Positions 4,895 through 14,591 of a stretch of 32,000 nt of DNA are shown one piece after another. Each line of letters begins with the position of its first letter. Position 1 is the first letter of the stretch. Location: NCBI GenBank assembly GCA_030606485.1, contig JAUWGH010000012.1, positions 1-32,000 on the forward strand, given 5' to 3'. Under the pieces are notes generated by a model that did not search any database, was not told where the DNA came from, and saw nothing but the letters and a program-made list of their open reading frames with translations. The position numbers and the translations under genes are program-made. This stretch comes from Promethearchaeota archaeon (lineage in GTDB: Archaea; Asgardarchaeota; Lokiarchaeia; Sigyniarchaeales; SOKP01).

Positions 4895-5905
4895 TTATTC
4901 TTCATTTTTCTCTTCATGCCATCCCAGATCAGATAAAATATCTTTAAATTGTTCATTTTCTTCTATTTCAAATTCAGCATCGTACTCAGAAGCAAGATCA
5001 AATTCATTAAAACCTTGAGGGGGTTCAAAGCTCTGATAATTAAAGCTTTCTTCAGGAATCTTTTGTTCAATTTCAGGAACTGGTTCTGTAAGGGGCGCTT
5101 CTTCTGGAATTATTTCTTCTGATACAATTTCTTGTTCAATTTCCATAGGTGTATAATCATCAAGAGGAATTGGAGGCACTTCATCCCCATATACCTTAAT
5201 TCCATATAGTTCCTCAGATTCTCGTGCTTTATCGATGGCTTCTACTTTTTCTTCGGCAGTTATTGGAACTGTTTTTCCTTCTTCTGGGATTTTCATCATC
5301 ATAGACTGAGGAATGGAGACTATATTATTTTGAACTATTTCCTCCTCCTCTCCTTCAGCACCCCATGATTTTAAAAATTGTAGAGTCGCTTCTATTGCTT
5401 TTTGATCTTCTTTAGCAGATGGTTTTAATATTCCTACTCCCTTTTCTGCTTGTATTTTTTCCTTTTCTGCTTGCATTTTCATTAATTCTTCTTCTTCAAG
5501 ATTTATTGCCATTTCCGTTACTTCTCCACCTGAAATTAATTCATTAATTTTCCGGGCGATTTCTCTCAAATAACCCATATAATAACCGATTTTTAATACG
5601 TTCTCTAACGCTCCGAAAATAATATATTCATCATTTACAGCCATTAATATACCATAACCTTTCTCATTGTGGAGTAGGATTTCTCTTAAGGCTCCATGTT
5701 CTACAGATTGACTTAAACGAATTCCGAGATCGATTAAAGCTGTGCTTGATGCAGAAATTGCGTCTGCATCTAATTCGGCTGATTTTGCTGAAGCGACTTT
5801 CATTCCAATACGTGATAGTACAGATAACTGTTCAAGATCTGTTTTCTTCTCTTCTATTTGAAGGATTTCCATGAGTCTATTCTGAATTTGTGGAGAAATC
5901 GACAT
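4895..5905 (-). CDS. Roadblock/LC7 (MglB-like) domain protein with long acidic, probably disordered C-terminal tail
   Basis: Residues ~1-125 follow the roadblock pattern (VLSRIGMKVASA, DADAISASSTALIDLG, ILLHNEKGYGILMAVNDEYII, IGYYMGYLREIARKI); the remainder is Glu/Pro-rich. Confidence 0.78.
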   Translation of the reverse strand: MSISPQIQNRLMEILQIEEKKTDLEQLSVLSRIGMKVASAKSAELDADAISASSTALIDLGIRLSQSVEHGALREILLHNEKGYGILMAVNDEYIIFGALENVLKIGYYMGYLREIARKINELISGGEVTEMAINLEEEELMKMQAEKEKIQAEKGVGILKPSAKEDQKAIEATLQFLKSWGAEGEEEEIVQNNIVSIPQSMMMKIPEEGKTVPITAEEKVEAIDKARESEELYGIKVYGDEVPPIPLDDYTPMEIEQEIVSEEIIPEEAPLTEPVPEIEQKIPEESFNYQSFEPPQGFNEFDLASEYDAEFEIEENEQFKDILSDLGWHEEKNEE

Positions 5906-11563: not shown

Positions 11564-11625
11564 GGGAAAACAGAAAGATGGGACTAAAAAACAAATTATT
11601 TCCAAAAAAGGGAAAACAGAAAGAT
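11564..11625 (+). repeat. Exact 16-bp direct repeat GGGAAAACAGAAAGAT (11564-11579 and 11610-11625), period 46 bp
   Basis: Read directly from the sequence; the two copies flank the ESCRT-III start codon. Confidence 0.9.
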
Positions 11626-12210
11626 AAGACAATAGTGAACATTAAGAAGCAGATTCATCAATTAAAACTCAAATCTAAAGCACTAAATCAAAAATCTGAA
11701 TTATATCGAAAAAATGCTAAAATCGCATTAAAAAATGGAAATAAGGAAAGATCTAAGAATTATCTGGTCCAATGGAAATCCTATAGGAATAAAATTAATA
11801 GAAATACGAATTTATCGTCCAAACTTGAGAGATATATAGATGCAATCGAGGAAGGCAGACTTATCAAGGGTTTAGAATCAACTTTATCAGCCTCAACTGC
11901 TGCCTTAAAAGATTTAGCGGTAAGCGCAAGTCCAGAAAAAGTAGCTACACTTAGTGAGGAAAGTGAGGAATATATTGCAATGATTGAGGAATCAGGCGAA
12001 ATTCTTGCAGGAGACCCGGAAATTGACCAAGGAATTAATATTGATGATGAGTTTGAAAAATTAGAATCCGAGGTCTTACTTGAAGCAGCTGGTGAGATTC
12101 CAGAAATTCCAGTTGAAGAGGAGTTTCTTATAGATGAGATTCCTGAAATGGAAACCAAGGAAAAATTAAAGGACGAAATAGCTAAACTTAAAAAAGAATT
12201 AGAAGAATAA
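11578..12210 (+). CDS. ESCRT-III / Snf7-family protein, Vps20/32/60 (CHMP4-7)-like
   Basis: Basic N-terminal helical hairpin and acidic C-terminal half; MGLKNKLF N-terminal amphipathic helix; ALKNGNKERSKNYL (cf. A.K.G.K..A...L); IDDEFEKLESE; EIPEIP; terminal helix. ATG at 11578 is preferred over TTG at 11557. Confidence 0.85.
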   Translation: MGLKNKLFPKKGKQKDKTIVNIKKQIHQLKLKSKALNQKSELYRKNAKIALKNGNKERSKNYLVQWKSYRNKINRNTNLSSKLERYIDAIEEGRLIKGLESTLSASTAALKDLAVSASPEKVATLSEESEEYIAMIEESGEILAGDPEIDQGINIDDEFEKLESEVLLEAAGEIPEIPVEEEFLIDEIPEMETKEKLKDEIAKLKKELEE

Positions 12211-12272
12211 GGTTAATAAAGTTTTATTTCTCTATTAAATCGATTTCTTCTTTAACTGGATAACTATATTAC

Positions 12273-12297
12273 TTTTTTTGAGAAAAAGAAAAAAAAA
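12273..12297. terminator. Bidirectional oligo-U terminator candidate between convergent genes
   Basis: T7 on + (12273-12279), and A5 plus A9 on + (= U tracts on -) at 12283-12297, within the 95-bp gap between the two stops. Confidence 0.5.
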
Positions 12298-12305
12298 GAT
12301 TTTTA

Positions 12306-14162
12306 TTAAAAATCTGAAGAATATTTTTTAAAAGCATCTTCCTCATCAATTTCCATTTTCAAATCTTGAATTTTTCTCTCTATTACAAAAAGTTCTTGTT
12401 GATAGGATCTATACGTTCTAAAATAATCCACTTCTGAGATCTCTGACTTCTGAAACTTCCTCTCTAGATGTTTAAGAGTTTGACTTAAACTGAATTCTTC
12501 TTTCTCAAGTTCTAAAAGATGGGTTCTTTTATCAAAATCTGAGCGTTTATTATCTTCTTGGTACCCTCGCTGATTTAAATATAAATGTCCCCGATTTAAA
12601 AATCGTTGGTTTAACCTATTTGGGTTCGTTAAGTCCATGTTATTAAATTCAGGGTTGAAATAATTTTTTTGAACTTGATAAGGGTGTGCAGCAGCCGTAT
12701 TTTGATTGATAAAGTTATTAGGGTTGATATTTGGTGGATATTGAGGATTATATGGTCTTTGATAGTCCTCCAACTTTCTCATTAAAATATTGTTCTCATT
12801 AAAATGGAAATCATTTTGATTTCGATAATTTCTATTTGGCTGTGCGAATTGATTTCCCTGAAAATTATTTACATAGGGGTTATTATAATTTTGTCTCGGA
12901 TGATTATAATTATAATTTTCACCATAATTCATTTGATAATTCGGTAAATAATCTGGATTTTTACTGCATTTTAGATTTAACAGATATGAAATGTTCATTT
13001 CGATGAAATCAATTAAATCTTTTACATCTAATTTAAACATCATTAGAGATTTTGAGGATTCAATATCATATCTTTGATTTTCATCAAAAACTCTTGCATT
13101 CTCTATATATTCAATCACATCTTTTCTTTTTGATGAAGGTATTGAGAAGTAATATTTCCCATATACGAATTCCATATATAGTTTTTTTCTTACTGTCCCT
13201 GTAATTTGTATTCGCTTAAATTCCTCATGAGGAATTTTAAAAATAAACTCTACCCGCTTTTTTAATAATCCATATTCATGAATAAAATAAATGTAGAGAT
13301 TTGAAATTAATAGTGTCCCCCTTTCATTTGAATATTCATTTAAAGGATTAAACCCCTTTGCCAATTTGCACCGCACCGCATATAATGCCTTCTCATCCCT
13401 TGTAAATTCAATTATACTGTTAAATTTTTGAAAATTATTTCGAATATCTTCAAGGAATTTTATTTTAGCATCAATTTCTTGGATTTTATCACTGATTTTT
13501 TTAAGATTATTCTCAATAAAAATAGAAAGAGATTTGTGCTCATGATTAAGATTTTCCAAGATTCCAATGATGATAGGAATGTTTGTATTGGATTGTGTGG
13601 ATATATCGATGAAATAGTTCCTATTCATAAAAATATGGTCATATTCTCGTCTTATATTCTCATATACTTCTTTTTTCACATGAATAAAAAGCCTGTATAA
13701 TGTAATTAATTCTGCTTCTAAAGAAGGGAAATGATAGCATTTAAAGGGTGGTTCTCTAACTTTTTTTAGTTTATTTCGTAGTAAGCTTAACTTATTTATC
13801 AGCTCTCTAAAAGGAATAATAAAGGATCTTGTGTTTCTAATTAATTGAATATATTTTTCATTTATCTGCTTCTTTTTCTCAAATACTTTCACAATAAGGG
13901 AAGAATTGCATTTAGGGCATATTTTTACATTCTTATAAACTTTTGTAGTATTTTGACTAAAGCAGCTATCACATTTTAATATTCCTTCCTTATTTCTACT
14001 TATTTTTTCGGACCCACAATTACTACAGATTAAAAATTCAGTTTGTTTTTCTTTAATGCAGTCAGAGCAAAAACTAGAATGGCAACTTTCACAATAATAA
14101 TTTAAATGCATGCTTCTCTGACACATTGGACAAAGTTGTGTTTGTCTTTGTCGTTCTAACAT
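12306..14162 (-). CDS. Multidomain ESCRT-I-like protein: Cys-rich Zn region (B-box-like), coiled coil, PH/GRAM-like domain, N/Q/Y/P low-complexity region, C-terminal steadiness box (Vps23/TSG101-like)
   Basis: Six CxxC pairs in residues 11-85; GTLLISNLYIYF PH/GRAM motif; N/Q-rich residues 402-535; residues 550-600 align ungapped to the TSG101 SB as recalled; GAGGT 9 nt upstream of the ATG. Confidence 0.7.
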   Translation of the reverse strand: MLERQRQTQLCPMCQRSMHLNYYCESCHSSFCSDCIKEKQTEFLICSNCGSEKISRNKEGILKCDSCFSQNTTKVYKNVKICPKCNSSLIVKVFEKKKQINEKYIQLIRNTRSFIIPFRELINKLSLLRNKLKKVREPPFKCYHFPSLEAELITLYRLFIHVKKEVYENIRREYDHIFMNRNYFIDISTQSNTNIPIIIGILENLNHEHKSLSIFIENNLKKISDKIQEIDAKIKFLEDIRNNFQKFNSIIEFTRDEKALYAVRCKLAKGFNPLNEYSNERGTLLISNLYIYFIHEYGLLKKRVEFIFKIPHEEFKRIQITGTVRKKLYMEFVYGKYYFSIPSSKRKDVIEYIENARVFDENQRYDIESSKSLMMFKLDVKDLIDFIEMNISYLLNLKCSKNPDYLPNYQMNYGENYNYNHPRQNYNNPYVNNFQGNQFAQPNRNYRNQNDFHFNENNILMRKLEDYQRPYNPQYPPNINPNNFINQNTAAAHPYQVQKNYFNPEFNNMDLTNPNRLNQRFLNRGHLYLNQRGYQEDNKRSDFDKRTHLLELEKEEFSLSQTLKHLERKFQKSEISEVDYFRTYRSYQQELFVIERKIQDLKMEIDEEDAFKKYSSDF

Positions 14163-14297: not shown

Positions 14298-14591
14298 TTA
14301 TTTAATTATTTTAATTTTTTGACCTAATGCCTGACCTGGCAAACCAGCTTTTTTAAAATGGGCTAAAACTGCTCCATTATTTCCATGTGGTTTTGTTATT
14401 TTTCCTTTTAAGGATCTTCCTGCCGGCGAAATCCATTCTACTGTTCGACCTATTAATATAGATGCCTTACTTCGGGATTTTATAGCATCAAAATGTAAAA
14501 TACAATATTTTGGGTGAATTAAATGCCGACCTCTTTTATAATTGGCAATAGCTCCTTCCATTCCTAATAATTCCAGTTTGCTAATTGACAT
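14298..14591 (-). CDS. rpl35ae: 50S ribosomal protein L35Ae (eL33)
   Basis: GAIANYKRG, LIGRTVEWISPAGRSLKGKITKPHGNNGAVLAHF...GLPGQALG. Confidence 0.95.
   Translation of the reverse strand: MSISKLELLGMEGAIANYKRGRHLIHPKYCILHFDAIKSRSKASILIGRTVEWISPAGRSLKGKITKPHGNNGAVLAHFKKAGLPGQALGQKIKIIK

Follow-up and report, generated by a model that had tools for sequence, protein, structure and literature searches.

The Znr_CC_PH_SB proteins (asCOG cog.011556) form a published Asgard family (Makarova et al., 2024, mBio, PMC10936438). They were proposed to be a component of ESCRT-I with a membrane-binding PH domain (PMC10936438), and Table S2 of the same paper gives the gene order L35Ae - Znr_CC_PH_SB - MetE - Vps20 for Lokiarchaeum GC14_75. 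Loki CHMP4-7, the GC14_75 orthologue of the ESCRT-III protein encoded at the locus described here, self-assembles in vitro, makes helical tubes and deforms vesicles; PDB 9FN1 is the helical tube of the GC14_75 protein. Contacts between an SB-protein and Vps28, and between Vps25 and ESCRT-IIIB, were obtained with Asgard proteins by yeast two-hybrid. Asgard archaea are not known to have Vps37 or Mvb12 partners.

Layout of the locus

The window, i.e. the whole stretch of DNA that was analysed, covers 32,000 nucleotides of a contig from Promethearchaeota. The following features were defined in it:

11578..12210, + strand, ESCRT-IIIB gene (Vps20/32/60-like, 'CHMP4-7'), 210 aa (Pfam Snf7, PDB 9fn1_U, tree)
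12211..12305, no strand, convergent intergenic spacer of 95 bp with T tracts on both strands (read from the sequence)
12306..14162, - strand, Znr_CC_PH_SB family gene, 618 aa, asCOG cog.011556 type (architecture, homologues, synteny)
14298..14591, - strand, L35Ae ribosomal protein gene, context only (Pfam Ribosomal_L35Ae, E 1.2e-16)

An earlier sequence-only reading had described an Snf7-family gene and a gene for a 618-aa protein which converge across 95 bp with T tracts on both strands, and this was confirmed for the ORFs and for the spacer. The ESCRT-IIIB gene starts with the ATG at 11578, giving the N-terminus 'MG.K.KLFPKK' that is conserved in the family, and stops at 12208-12210. The 618-aa gene is coding from 14162 to 12309 on the - strand with its stop codon at 12306-12308. 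The spacer displays TTTTATTT at 12222-12229 and T7 at 12273-12279 on the + strand, as well as T9 at 12289-12297 and T5 at 12283-12287 on the - strand. One metatranscriptome contig (97% identical) spans positions 11639-12279 and stops at the T7 tract, which is a weak hint only. In two metatranscriptome runs, contigs were found over the ESCRT-IIIB gene and the spacer only, and the coverage gap on the 618-aa gene is uninformative.

A Pfam scan of the other ORFs of at least 90 aa in the window, in which a few short ORFs inside or overlapping longer genes were skipped, detected no Vps4, ESCRT-II, Vps28, UEV or ubiquitin domains. This agrees with the claim that Vps4, ESCRT-II and ubiquitin genes are missing from the window. 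The L35Ae gene adjoins the family gene in most loci of the same order and in none of the loci of other classes; its conservation as upstream neighbour is limited to the order.

The ESCRT-IIIB protein

The 210-aa product matched Pfam Snf7 with an E-value of 3.5e-13 (50 bits, cut-off 27.3) and, over its full length, PDB 9fn1_U, annotated as 'Vps20/32/60-like protein (ESCRT-III)', with an E-value of 1.8e-53. Yeast Snf7 cores matched at E about 0.007. In a two-clade ESCRT-III tree the product was placed in the IIIB clade (split support 99/97), and with the 9fn1_U match this validates the earlier assignment to the Vps20/32/60 type. The C-terminal helix is conserved. Pro175 and Pro178 were checked as a candidate MIM2-type proline motif for the MIT domain of Vps4; judged from the sequence alone, both are invariant (23 sequences). 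Features shared with Loki CHMP4-7 (9FN1), Heimdall ESCRT-IIIB (9FTL) and eukaryotic Vps20/Snf7 are the basic character of the N-terminus, a Pro-x-x-Pro motif and the helix at the C-terminus. Unlike in eukaryotes, a single 210-aa protein represents the entire Vps20/32/60 class.

Domain architecture of the 618-aa protein

Searches with the whole 618-aa protein yielded sub-threshold matches only in Pfam and NCBIfam and nothing useful in the PDB (phmmer). The AF2 model of residues 1-412 gave a pLDDT of 85.6 and a pTM of 0.73. From N- to C-terminus, all on the - strand, the domains are:

13887..14141, residues 8-92, three Zn ribbons or B-box-like module (Cys pairs, AF2, weak Pfam)
13425..13886, residues 93-246, helical region, coiled-coil or bundle (AF2, invariant columns)
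13071..13424, residues ~247-364, PH-like domain of GRAM/GLUE flavour (AF2, Foldseek, VIA, weak Pfam)
12549..12959, residues 402-538, N/Q/Y/P-rich low-complexity linker (composition)
12309..12548, residues 539-618, predicted C-terminal steadiness-box helical hairpin (profile, AF2, Foldseek)

The Zn module contains six CxxC pairs, and all 12 Cys are invariant in 18 sequences. It is modelled as short beta-hairpins (pLDDT 84-93) and is weakly matched by Pfam zf-B_box or DZR in 9 of 19 diverse members; no match to the NZF profile was obtained (Pfam). The helical region is built from helices 93-114, 116-136, 148-179 and 192-246 (pLDDT 82-97), and an invariant R-x-PP-x-x-C-x-H-x-P-x-x-E motif is located at residues 136-149.

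In the PH-like domain, seven strands are followed by a C-terminal helix. Foldseek identified the PH-like domain of Lam6 (E 1.2e-6), and VIA aligned PH domains of Trio, Dbs and P-Rex1, the GRAM domain of MTMR2 and the GLUE domain of EAP45 (2hth_B) with Z of 10.5-13.1 and rmsd of 2.3-3.6 Å over about 95-130 residues, the aligned part of the model being about 245-364. Lys258, Lys266, Lys309 and Lys326 are invariant. Weak Pfam matches in the 19 members were bPH_3 (7), GRAM (5) and, below cut-off, Vps36_ESCRT-II (3). The PH-like fold is generic and uninformative on the ligand. A DH-PH tandem was considered, as RhoGEFs ranked high in Foldseek; once the helical part was included the rmsd rose to 8-20 Å, hence only the PH part resembles them.

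The linker (N 26%, N+Q+Y+P 57%) ranks first among 2590 ORFs of the genome for N+Q+Y+P content in a 100-aa window. A long linker of the same composition occurs in Promethearchaeia members only, most of which are larger (about 650-750 aa) and have a longer linker than the present protein.

For the C-terminus, the best profile match in the PDB was the steadiness box of yeast Vps23 (2f66_A, E 0.021), followed by Vps28-N chains. Pfam Vps23_core matched 14 of 15 members, all under the cut-off (best E 6.5e-6), and the profile of the steadiness box also picked out the N-terminus of Vps28 from the same genome (E 0.0016). The modelled hairpin (pLDDT 93.3) superposed on 2f6m_C with an rmsd of 0.6 Å over 58 columns (TM 0.90), and its 11 best Foldseek matches in the PDB were all hairpins of the ESCRT-I headpiece, with E-values of 0.06-0.5. 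The sequence matches to a steadiness box are weak, yet they agree with one another; a helical hairpin is a simple fold. A SHOCT domain, suggested by the loop 'G-x-I-S-E-x-D-Y-F', was rejected since only 2 of 15 members matched it (E 0.012), versus 14 of 15 for Vps23_core. The Zn module, PH-like domain, N/Q/Y/P-rich linker and steadiness box of the sequence-only reading all hold as domain calls, the PH-like fold by Foldseek and VIA, the steadiness box by sub-cut-off profile matches and by fold.

Family membership and comparison with known adaptors

Both the architecture and the synteny of the 618-aa gene match the published description of Znr_CC_PH_SB and the Table S2 entry. As in that family, three Zn ribbons, a coiled-coil or helical region, a PH domain and a C-terminal steadiness box are combined in an Asgard-restricted protein. 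The comparison with GC14_75, made by gene order, likewise showed L35Ae upstream, then the family gene and a convergent Vps20-type gene downstream. A MetE-like gene is interposed in GC14_75, whereas only 95 bp separate the two genes here. Relatives come from Promethearchaeota MAGs, and the 19 close homologues of the protein (identity 32-99%) are all from Loki/Promethearchaeota. The family was matched in 292 of 400 Asgard genomes, each with a single copy, and in only 118 clusters among 1.84 billion representative proteins. On this basis the gene is taken as a typical member of Znr_CC_PH_SB, a family specific to Asgard archaea, and it probably encodes an early-acting adaptor of ESCRT-I type.

Like eukaryotic Vps23/TSG101, the 618-aa protein ends in a predicted steadiness-box hairpin, for which Vps23 is the best PDB match by profile and fold, preceded by a disordered, Pro-containing linker. 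In contrast to Vps23/TSG101 it lacks a UEV domain (no Pfam match to UEV or UQ_con), its N-terminus consisting of Zn ribbons, helical region and PH-like domain. With eukaryotic Vps36/EAP45 it shares a PH-like domain carrying a 'G-x-L-x-[IL]-[ST]-N' strand; the EAP45 GLUE domain 2hth_B reached a Z of 10.5, equalled by many PH, PTB and GRAM domains. Yeast Vps36 also has Zn fingers in the same chain as its PH-like domain. However, the Zn modules are N-terminal in the 618-aa protein and not inserted into the PH domain, and the EAP30 or winged-helix domains of Vps36/EAP45 are absent (no EAP30 match in Pfam). Crenarchaeal CdvA possesses a PRC barrel, and its E3B peptide binds the CdvB winged helix. 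The CdvA gene, a membrane-targeting adaptor gene, lies beside an ESCRT-III gene as the gene of the predicted adaptor does here, but the 618-aa protein displays neither PRC barrel nor E3B peptide.

Conservation of the tail-to-tail pair

The linkage on which the sequence-only reading was built was surveyed across Asgard genomes, using loci from 45 genomes in which 2 kb or more of sequence followed downstream and counting ESCRT-III genes within 5 kb. The family gene was convergent with an ESCRT-III gene in 35 of 41 loci, which represent 12 of 15 GTDB families. Among further Promethearchaeia loci, 70 of 72 showed the same arrangement. Such a recurrence places the adjacency far beyond chance. Of 33 partners, 27 fall in the IIIB clade; in one family (f31) the adjacent gene is of the IIIA clade instead. 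The tail-to-tail pair is ancient across Asgard archaea.

In the non-Loki classes the two genes meet or overlap at their stop codons, with gaps ranging from -4 to +4 bp in 8 loci. Genes for ESCRT-IIIA, UEV-Vps23 and Vps28 are near the pair in some loci. In Promethearchaeia, about every second locus has a gene of roughly 1.1 kb inserted between the two, and in some the insert reaches 3.6 kb, with linkage and convergence retained. Over the same time span the other ESCRT genes and L35Ae dropped from the neighbourhood. In one genome (G298) the syntenic orthologue carries EAP30 (E 1.8e-11) in place of the steadiness box. In Lokiarchaeia the pair has outlived the dispersal of the ESCRT cluster. The description of the locus as a stand-alone module is right for Lokiarchaeia and does not extend to the other Asgard classes, where the pair adjoins ESCRT-IIIA inside a larger cluster.

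In the present genome the pair is set apart from the main ESCRT cluster, as had been supposed: ESCRT-IIIA, Vps4, Vps25 and EAP30 (Vps22) are clustered on one contig (C1), Vps28 is on another (C2), away from the 618-aa gene, and ubiquitin/E2 on a third (C10). Ubiquitin, E2 and a tandem E2/UEV-like ORF are encoded, and nothing above the Pfam cut-off for UEV was detected genome-wide.

Proposed function and alternatives

As an ESCRT-I-type adaptor, the 618-aa protein would be set on a membrane or cargo by its PH domain, perhaps together with the Zn module. By analogy with the eukaryotic ESCRT-I headpiece, its steadiness box may pair with the homologous N-terminal hairpin of Vps28. Vps28 would pass on to Vps22/Vps25, which would then nucleate ESCRT-IIIB, the self-polymerising, membrane-deforming CHMP4-7 subunit. 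Vps28, Vps22/EAP30, Vps25, Vps4 and ESCRT-IIIA are all encoded in the genome and provide the pathway context for this route. The 618-aa protein would be the best candidate for a Vps23-like subunit in a genome devoid of a UEV+SB Vps23. The gene pairing would be a sign of one shared pathway, and in Lokiarchaeia the pair would be merely separated from the ESCRT-IIIA/Vps4/Vps25 cluster. Against this route stand the position of Vps28, which is encoded away from the 618-aa gene in this genome, and the conserved neighbour, which is ESCRT-IIIB where a component of ESCRT-I or ESCRT-II might be looked for; a more direct link would explain this equally well or better. Complex prediction with the full-length adaptor and ESCRT-IIIB scored 0.00 in both runs, carrying no weight either way.

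A possible, though rather unlikely, explanation is that the adjacency has no special pairwise meaning and is left over from an ancestral ESCRT supercluster, preserved because any break between abutting or overlapping 3' ends would harm a gene. The stop codons and the nearby ESCRT-IIIA, UEV-Vps23 and Vps28 genes of the non-Loki loci agree with it, as does the IIIA-clade neighbour in f31. It is harder to reconcile with Promethearchaeia, where the pair stayed linked and convergent across the insertions while L35Ae and the rest of the ESCRT genes disappeared from the neighbourhood. This persistence through the cluster break-up, together with an ESCRT-III neighbour, mostly of the IIIB clade, in 12 of 15 families, argues for a PH-anchored adaptor that recruits or nucleates ESCRT-IIIB itself in the manner of CdvA, bypassing ESCRT-II, so that the pair is a self-sufficient targeting-plus-filament module. 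The sequence-only reading was close to this view. Homology between the steadiness box and the hairpin of CdvA has also been reported (PMC10936438). Weak Pfam matches to CdvA occur in 6 of 15 members. Nevertheless, to our knowledge Asgard ESCRT-IIIB lacks the winged-helix domain by which CdvB binds CdvA, the genes are convergent and not co-transcribed, and the full Vps22/Vps25/Vps28 set kept in the genome implies that the canonical route exists. Direct nucleation is considered unlikely.

The replacement of UEV by other modules had been read as a ubiquitin-independent route for the recruitment of ESCRT-III to membranes. It does not follow that the adaptor is blind to ubiquitin, since the Zn modules of yeast Vps36 bind ubiquitin and Vps28 (quoted in PMC10936438). 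Zn ribbons that read ubiquitin or a ubiquitin-like mark, or bind Vps28, as the NZF fingers of yeast Vps36 do, would make the protein a Vps36/Vps23 hybrid in place of a ubiquitin-independent route. The ubiquitin, E2 and E2/UEV-like genes, the Vps36 combination of Zn fingers with a GLUE-type PH, the weak Vps36_ESCRT-II matches in 3 members and the EAP30-ended orthologue point in this direction. The weak B-box or double-Zn-ribbon character of the Zn module, devoid of an NZF match, and the lack of a linked ubiquitin gene within the window speak against it and leave it improbable. A TRIM-like B-box/coiled-coil scaffold outside ESCRT, with a hairpin merely resembling a steadiness box, is suggested by the B-box matches in 9 of 19 members and by the NCBI names of two homologues ('B-box zinc finger protein', 'LIM domain-containing protein'). 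The phylum-wide linkage to ESCRT-III, the ESCRT-I headpiece hairpins as top sequence and fold matches of the C-terminus and the orthologue fused to EAP30 reduce its probability to next to nothing. Finally, the Znr_CC_PH adaptor and ESCRT-IIIB might be an ancient two-gene module for targeting and filament formation, with ESCRT-IIIB nucleated on membranes by the adaptor itself. The cassette of Zn and GLUE-like PH, joined to the steadiness box in the majority of Asgard lineages and to an EAP30 core in G298, might then have given rise to the GLUE/Zn-finger head of Vps36 in eukaryotes; this reading as a whole we regard as very unlikely.

Significance

The family and its reading as ESCRT-I component and membrane adaptor are already published, so that this is not a new kind of system and the window contributes no more than a clean case in which the two genes are direct neighbours. 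The suspicion that the linkage itself had been reported was justified, as the family and its Vps20 neighbourhood are found in PMC10936438 and its Table S2. What the survey adds is the phylum-wide tail-to-tail pairing with ESCRT-IIIB, its survival through the break-up of the cluster in Lokiarchaeia and one lineage where a Vps36-like version ending in EAP30 occupies this genomic position. These three points give a testable reason to assay the adaptor against both Vps28 and ESCRT-IIIB. How Asgard archaea aim ESCRT-III filaments at membranes is a question for eukaryogenesis, and among early ESCRT factors that could bind membranes independently of a UEV domain, Znr_CC_PH_SB is the foremost candidate.

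The convergent gene pair and its surroundings

The 210-aa ESCRT-IIIB gene and the 618-aa gene, which encodes a probable adaptor and is here called the adaptor gene, converge across a spacer with the following features.

11578-12210, + strand: 210-aa ORF (ATG 11578, stop 12208-12210), converging with the 618-aa ORF
12306-14162, - strand: 618-aa ORF (14162 to 12309, stop 12306-12308), converging with the 210-aa ORF
12273-12279, + strand: T7 tract in the 95-bp spacer
12289-12297 and 12283-12287, - strand: T9 and T5 tracts in the same spacer

Inspection of the ORFs and spacer confirmed in every detail the sequence-only reading, which had described an Snf7-family gene and a 618-aa gene converging across 95 bp with T tracts on both strands. 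A metatranscriptomic library yielded a 640-nt contig, 97% identical, that spans 11639-12279; it includes the greater part of the ESCRT-IIIB gene and stops at the + strand T7. It hints weakly at expression and at termination at this tract, but may instead reflect DNA carry-over.

The window (G+C of about 29%) belongs to contig C11 of a 3.75-Mb genome in 13 contigs, whose nearest named relatives are MAGs of Promethearchaeota/Promethearchaeia (Lokiarchaeia). About ten metagenome studies of cold seeps and marine sediments contain near-identical DNA. The other ORFs of at least 90 aa were scanned with Pfam, omitting a few short ones inside or overlapping longer genes. They are metabolic or housekeeping genes (glycosyltransferases, MFS transporters, GH57, DHQ synthase II, L35Ae, M20/M28 peptidases, a Y-family polymerase and others), and none encodes Vps4, ESCRT-II, Vps28, UEV or ubiquitin, as had been stated for Vps4, ESCRT-II and ubiquitin. 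A 336-aa ORF (4895-5905, - strand) displays a weak N-terminal Roadblock/LC7 match (E 0.0015); its long tail matches no family.

The ESCRT-IIIB gene

The assignment of the 210-aa gene to Vps20/32/60-type ESCRT-III stands. The Pfam Snf7 score exceeds the cut-off, and the protein is matched over its full length by PDB 9fn1_U, 'Vps20/32/60-like protein (ESCRT-III)' (E 1.8e-53). 9FN1 is a cryo-EM helical tube of CHMP4-7 from Lokiarchaeum GC14_75; in vitro this protein assembles on its own and deforms vesicles (PMC11791191). Fifty-one ESCRT-III sequences, all from the surveyed loci, split into two clades in a maximum-likelihood tree (support 99/97); the 210-aa gene groups with the IIIB type and the genome's second Snf7 gene, adjoining Vps4, with the IIIA type. 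Across 23 aligned IIIB sequences the basic N-terminus and the C-terminal helix are conserved, and prolines 175 and 178 (MIM2-like) do not vary.

Domain architecture of the probable adaptor

Searched as a whole against Pfam and NCBIfam, the 618-aa protein gave only sub-threshold matches. Nineteen homologues, all from Loki/Promethearchaeota, were retrieved from 5.8 billion proteins, and none of the 19 carries a precomputed Pfam domain. Their alignment delimited five parts: a Zn module with six CxxC pairs (12/12 Cys invariant), a helical region (residues 93-246), a beta-rich domain (residues ~250-360), a linker (residues 402-538) and a conserved C-terminal segment of 80 residues. An invariant R-x-PP-x-x-C-x-H-x-P-x-x-E (residues 136-149; window 13716-13757, - strand) occupies the break from one long helix to another; members from other Asgard classes have 'LR...F.H.P..E' as this motif. 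The AlphaFold2 model of residues 1-412 is confident (pLDDT 85.6, pTM 0.73); its Zn modules are small beta-hairpins, and it also has long helices and seven strands with a helix cap.

The fold of residues ~245-364 is PH-like, since structural matches span PH, PTB, GRAM and GLUE domains. Foldseek ranked the Lam6 PH-like domain first (E 1.2e-6) and many PH domains after it, and VIA-align gave Z 10.5-13.1 and rmsd 2.3-3.6 A over ~95-130 residues, with the EAP45 GLUE domain 2hth_B at Z 10.5. The proposed PH domain was thereby recovered, GLUE being no closer than PH, PTB or GRAM. Within the superfamily, diverse family members give weak Pfam matches that point toward bPH_3, GRAM and Vps36_ESCRT-II.

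The steadiness box proposed at the C-terminus was likewise upheld. Against the PDB, the C-terminal profile matched the yeast Vps23 steadiness box first (2f66_A, E 0.021) and Vps28 N-terminal chains next; it also matched the N-terminus of the genome's own Vps28. Pfam Vps23_core is matched by 14/15 members (best E 6.5e-6), every one below gathering score. The segment was modelled as a hairpin (pLDDT 93.3). A fold search of 350,542 PDB chains gave ESCRT-I headpiece hairpins as all 11 of its best matches (for example Vps23-C 2f6m_C: rmsd 0.6 A, 58 columns).

The linker is poorly conserved, with 26% Asn and 57% N+Q+Y+P, and holds the most extreme 100-residue N+Q+Y+P segment of the genome (2590 ORFs). 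This long form is restricted to Promethearchaeia members, the linker of other classes being short and Pro-containing. A helix-like 'ILMRKLE..Q' at mid-linker (residues ~459-470; window 12753-12788, - strand) is present in all Promethearchaeia members, with Leu464 and Gln468 invariant, and is a candidate linear binding motif.

Distribution and conservation of the pairing

With a profile of residues 1-412, the family was detected in 292/400 Asgard genomes, including 128/134 of the window's own GTDB family. Among 1.84 billion representative proteins it accounts for just 118 clusters. Each distant genome searched returned a single ORF, which suggests one copy per genome.

Forty-five loci from 45 genomes were searched by profile for ESCRT-III genes, and 41 of the loci had at least 2 kb downstream. 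An ESCRT-III gene lies tail-to-tail with the adaptor gene within 5 kb at 35 of these 41 loci; 12 GTDB families, out of 15 that had adequate flank, show the arrangement. Twenty-three of the 35 pairs are directly adjacent, several with abutting or overlapping stop codons, and the IIIB clade supplies the partner in 27/33 cases. In one GTDB family (f31; loci L062, L063, L064, L083, L084 and L086) the convergent partner belongs to the IIIA clade, with stops abutting or overlapping (gaps -4 to +4 bp). A second survey covered 80 further Promethearchaeia loci, of which 72 had enough flank; 70 of these have the tail-to-tail arrangement, either adjacent (13-156 bp, 30 loci) or with one inserted gene of ~1.1 kb (36 loci). 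The upstream L35Ae neighbour is conserved within the order only; therefore the ESCRT-III linkage has persisted for longer than gene order ordinarily does.

At the adaptor locus of other classes, ESCRT-IIIA adjoins IIIB, sometimes with UEV-Vps23 and Vps28 genes nearby, which makes the 'stand-alone module' a piece of an older cluster, specific to Lokiarchaeia. The sequence-only reading was right that the pair lies apart from the ESCRT cluster here, but this state does not extend beyond Lokiarchaeia.

An EAP30-ended orthologue

A syntenic orthologue was found in Promethearchaeota archaeon isolate H2M.186 (genome G298).

L085:8401-10206, + strand: EAP30-ended orthologue, the same protein as record P0022

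Its convergent ESCRT-IIIB gene is 635 bp away, and UEV-Vps23 and Vps28 genes are located ~6 kb upstream. The protein retains the Zn ribbons, the helical region and the PH domain (Vps36_ESCRT-II in Pfam, E 1.8e-4), with an EAP30/Vps22-36 domain (E 1.8e-11) replacing the steadiness box, so that this Asgard archaeon has a protein of Vps36-like architecture. Proteins of this form make up just 3 clusters among 5.8 billion proteins.

ESCRT genes elsewhere in the genome

ESCRT-IIIA, Vps4, Vps25 and an EAP30/Vps22 gene lie within 5 kb on contig C1, Vps28 on C2, and ubiquitin and an E2 on C10. The genome is without a canonical UEV+SB (steadiness box) Vps23; the sole UEV-like candidate, a 563-aa ORF (C12:166728-168092, - strand), resembles E2/UEV weakly in two segments (E 2e-5 and 1.7e-3) and gave no steadiness-box match. 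A 478-aa ORF on C10 (L073:1492-2928, - strand), without Pfam domain, contains a steadiness-box-like segment (E 6.9e-4 against the C-terminal profile of the adaptor family) and may be another multidomain protein that bears a steadiness box. A 788-aa ORF on C1 (L010:7929-10295, - strand) matches DDRGK at E 1.1e-11, has a region like an E3 UFM1 ligase at E 1.9e-14, and further matches PCI at E 9.7e-18 and the C-terminal domain of Vps28 at E 2.9e-5; from these matches it is predicted to fuse an ESCRT-I/II connector domain to a UFMylation-like scaffold.

Published family and proposed function

The 618-aa gene belongs to the already described Znr_CC_PH_SB family (asCOG cog.011556), which Makarova et al. 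interpreted likewise. They call it 'a likely ESCRT-I component' whose PH domain is 'expected to be membrane associated', and regard the family, which eukaryotes lack, as 'likely to be ancestral in Asgardarchaeota' (PMC10936438). Lu et al. treated cog.011556 as a 'Steadiness/Vps23 box' family. Much of the earlier interpretation, and its domain calls, therefore restate existing knowledge. The suspicion that the linkage had been reported was also borne out: Table S2 of Makarova et al. lists, for Lokiarchaeum GC14_75, L35Ae, Znr_CC_PH_SB (cog.011556, +), a MetE-like gene and Vps20 (cog.001938, -) (PMC10936438), which is the gene order of the window plus one extra gene, the MetE-like one. New here are the counts on conservation of the tail-to-tail pairing and the EAP30-ended, Vps36-like orthologue in one lineage.

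The analysis shows the domain set, family and conserved pairing, and Vps28, Vps22, Vps25, Vps4 and ESCRT-IIIA are encoded elsewhere in the genome. The PH and Zn modules of the adaptor would target membrane or cargo. The ubiquitin independence earlier ascribed to it is hypothetical, since the Zn fingers of yeast Vps36 bind ubiquitin (PMC10936438). As the best rival to a route through ESCRT-I and ESCRT-II, the adaptor could nucleate ESCRT-IIIB directly in a CdvA-like manner; this agrees with the pairing of the two genes and with published hints of contacts bypassing Vps25, and is considered rather unlikely. In the preferred reading, the steadiness box of the adaptor would pair with Vps28, and hand-over to ESCRT-IIIB would proceed via ESCRT-II.
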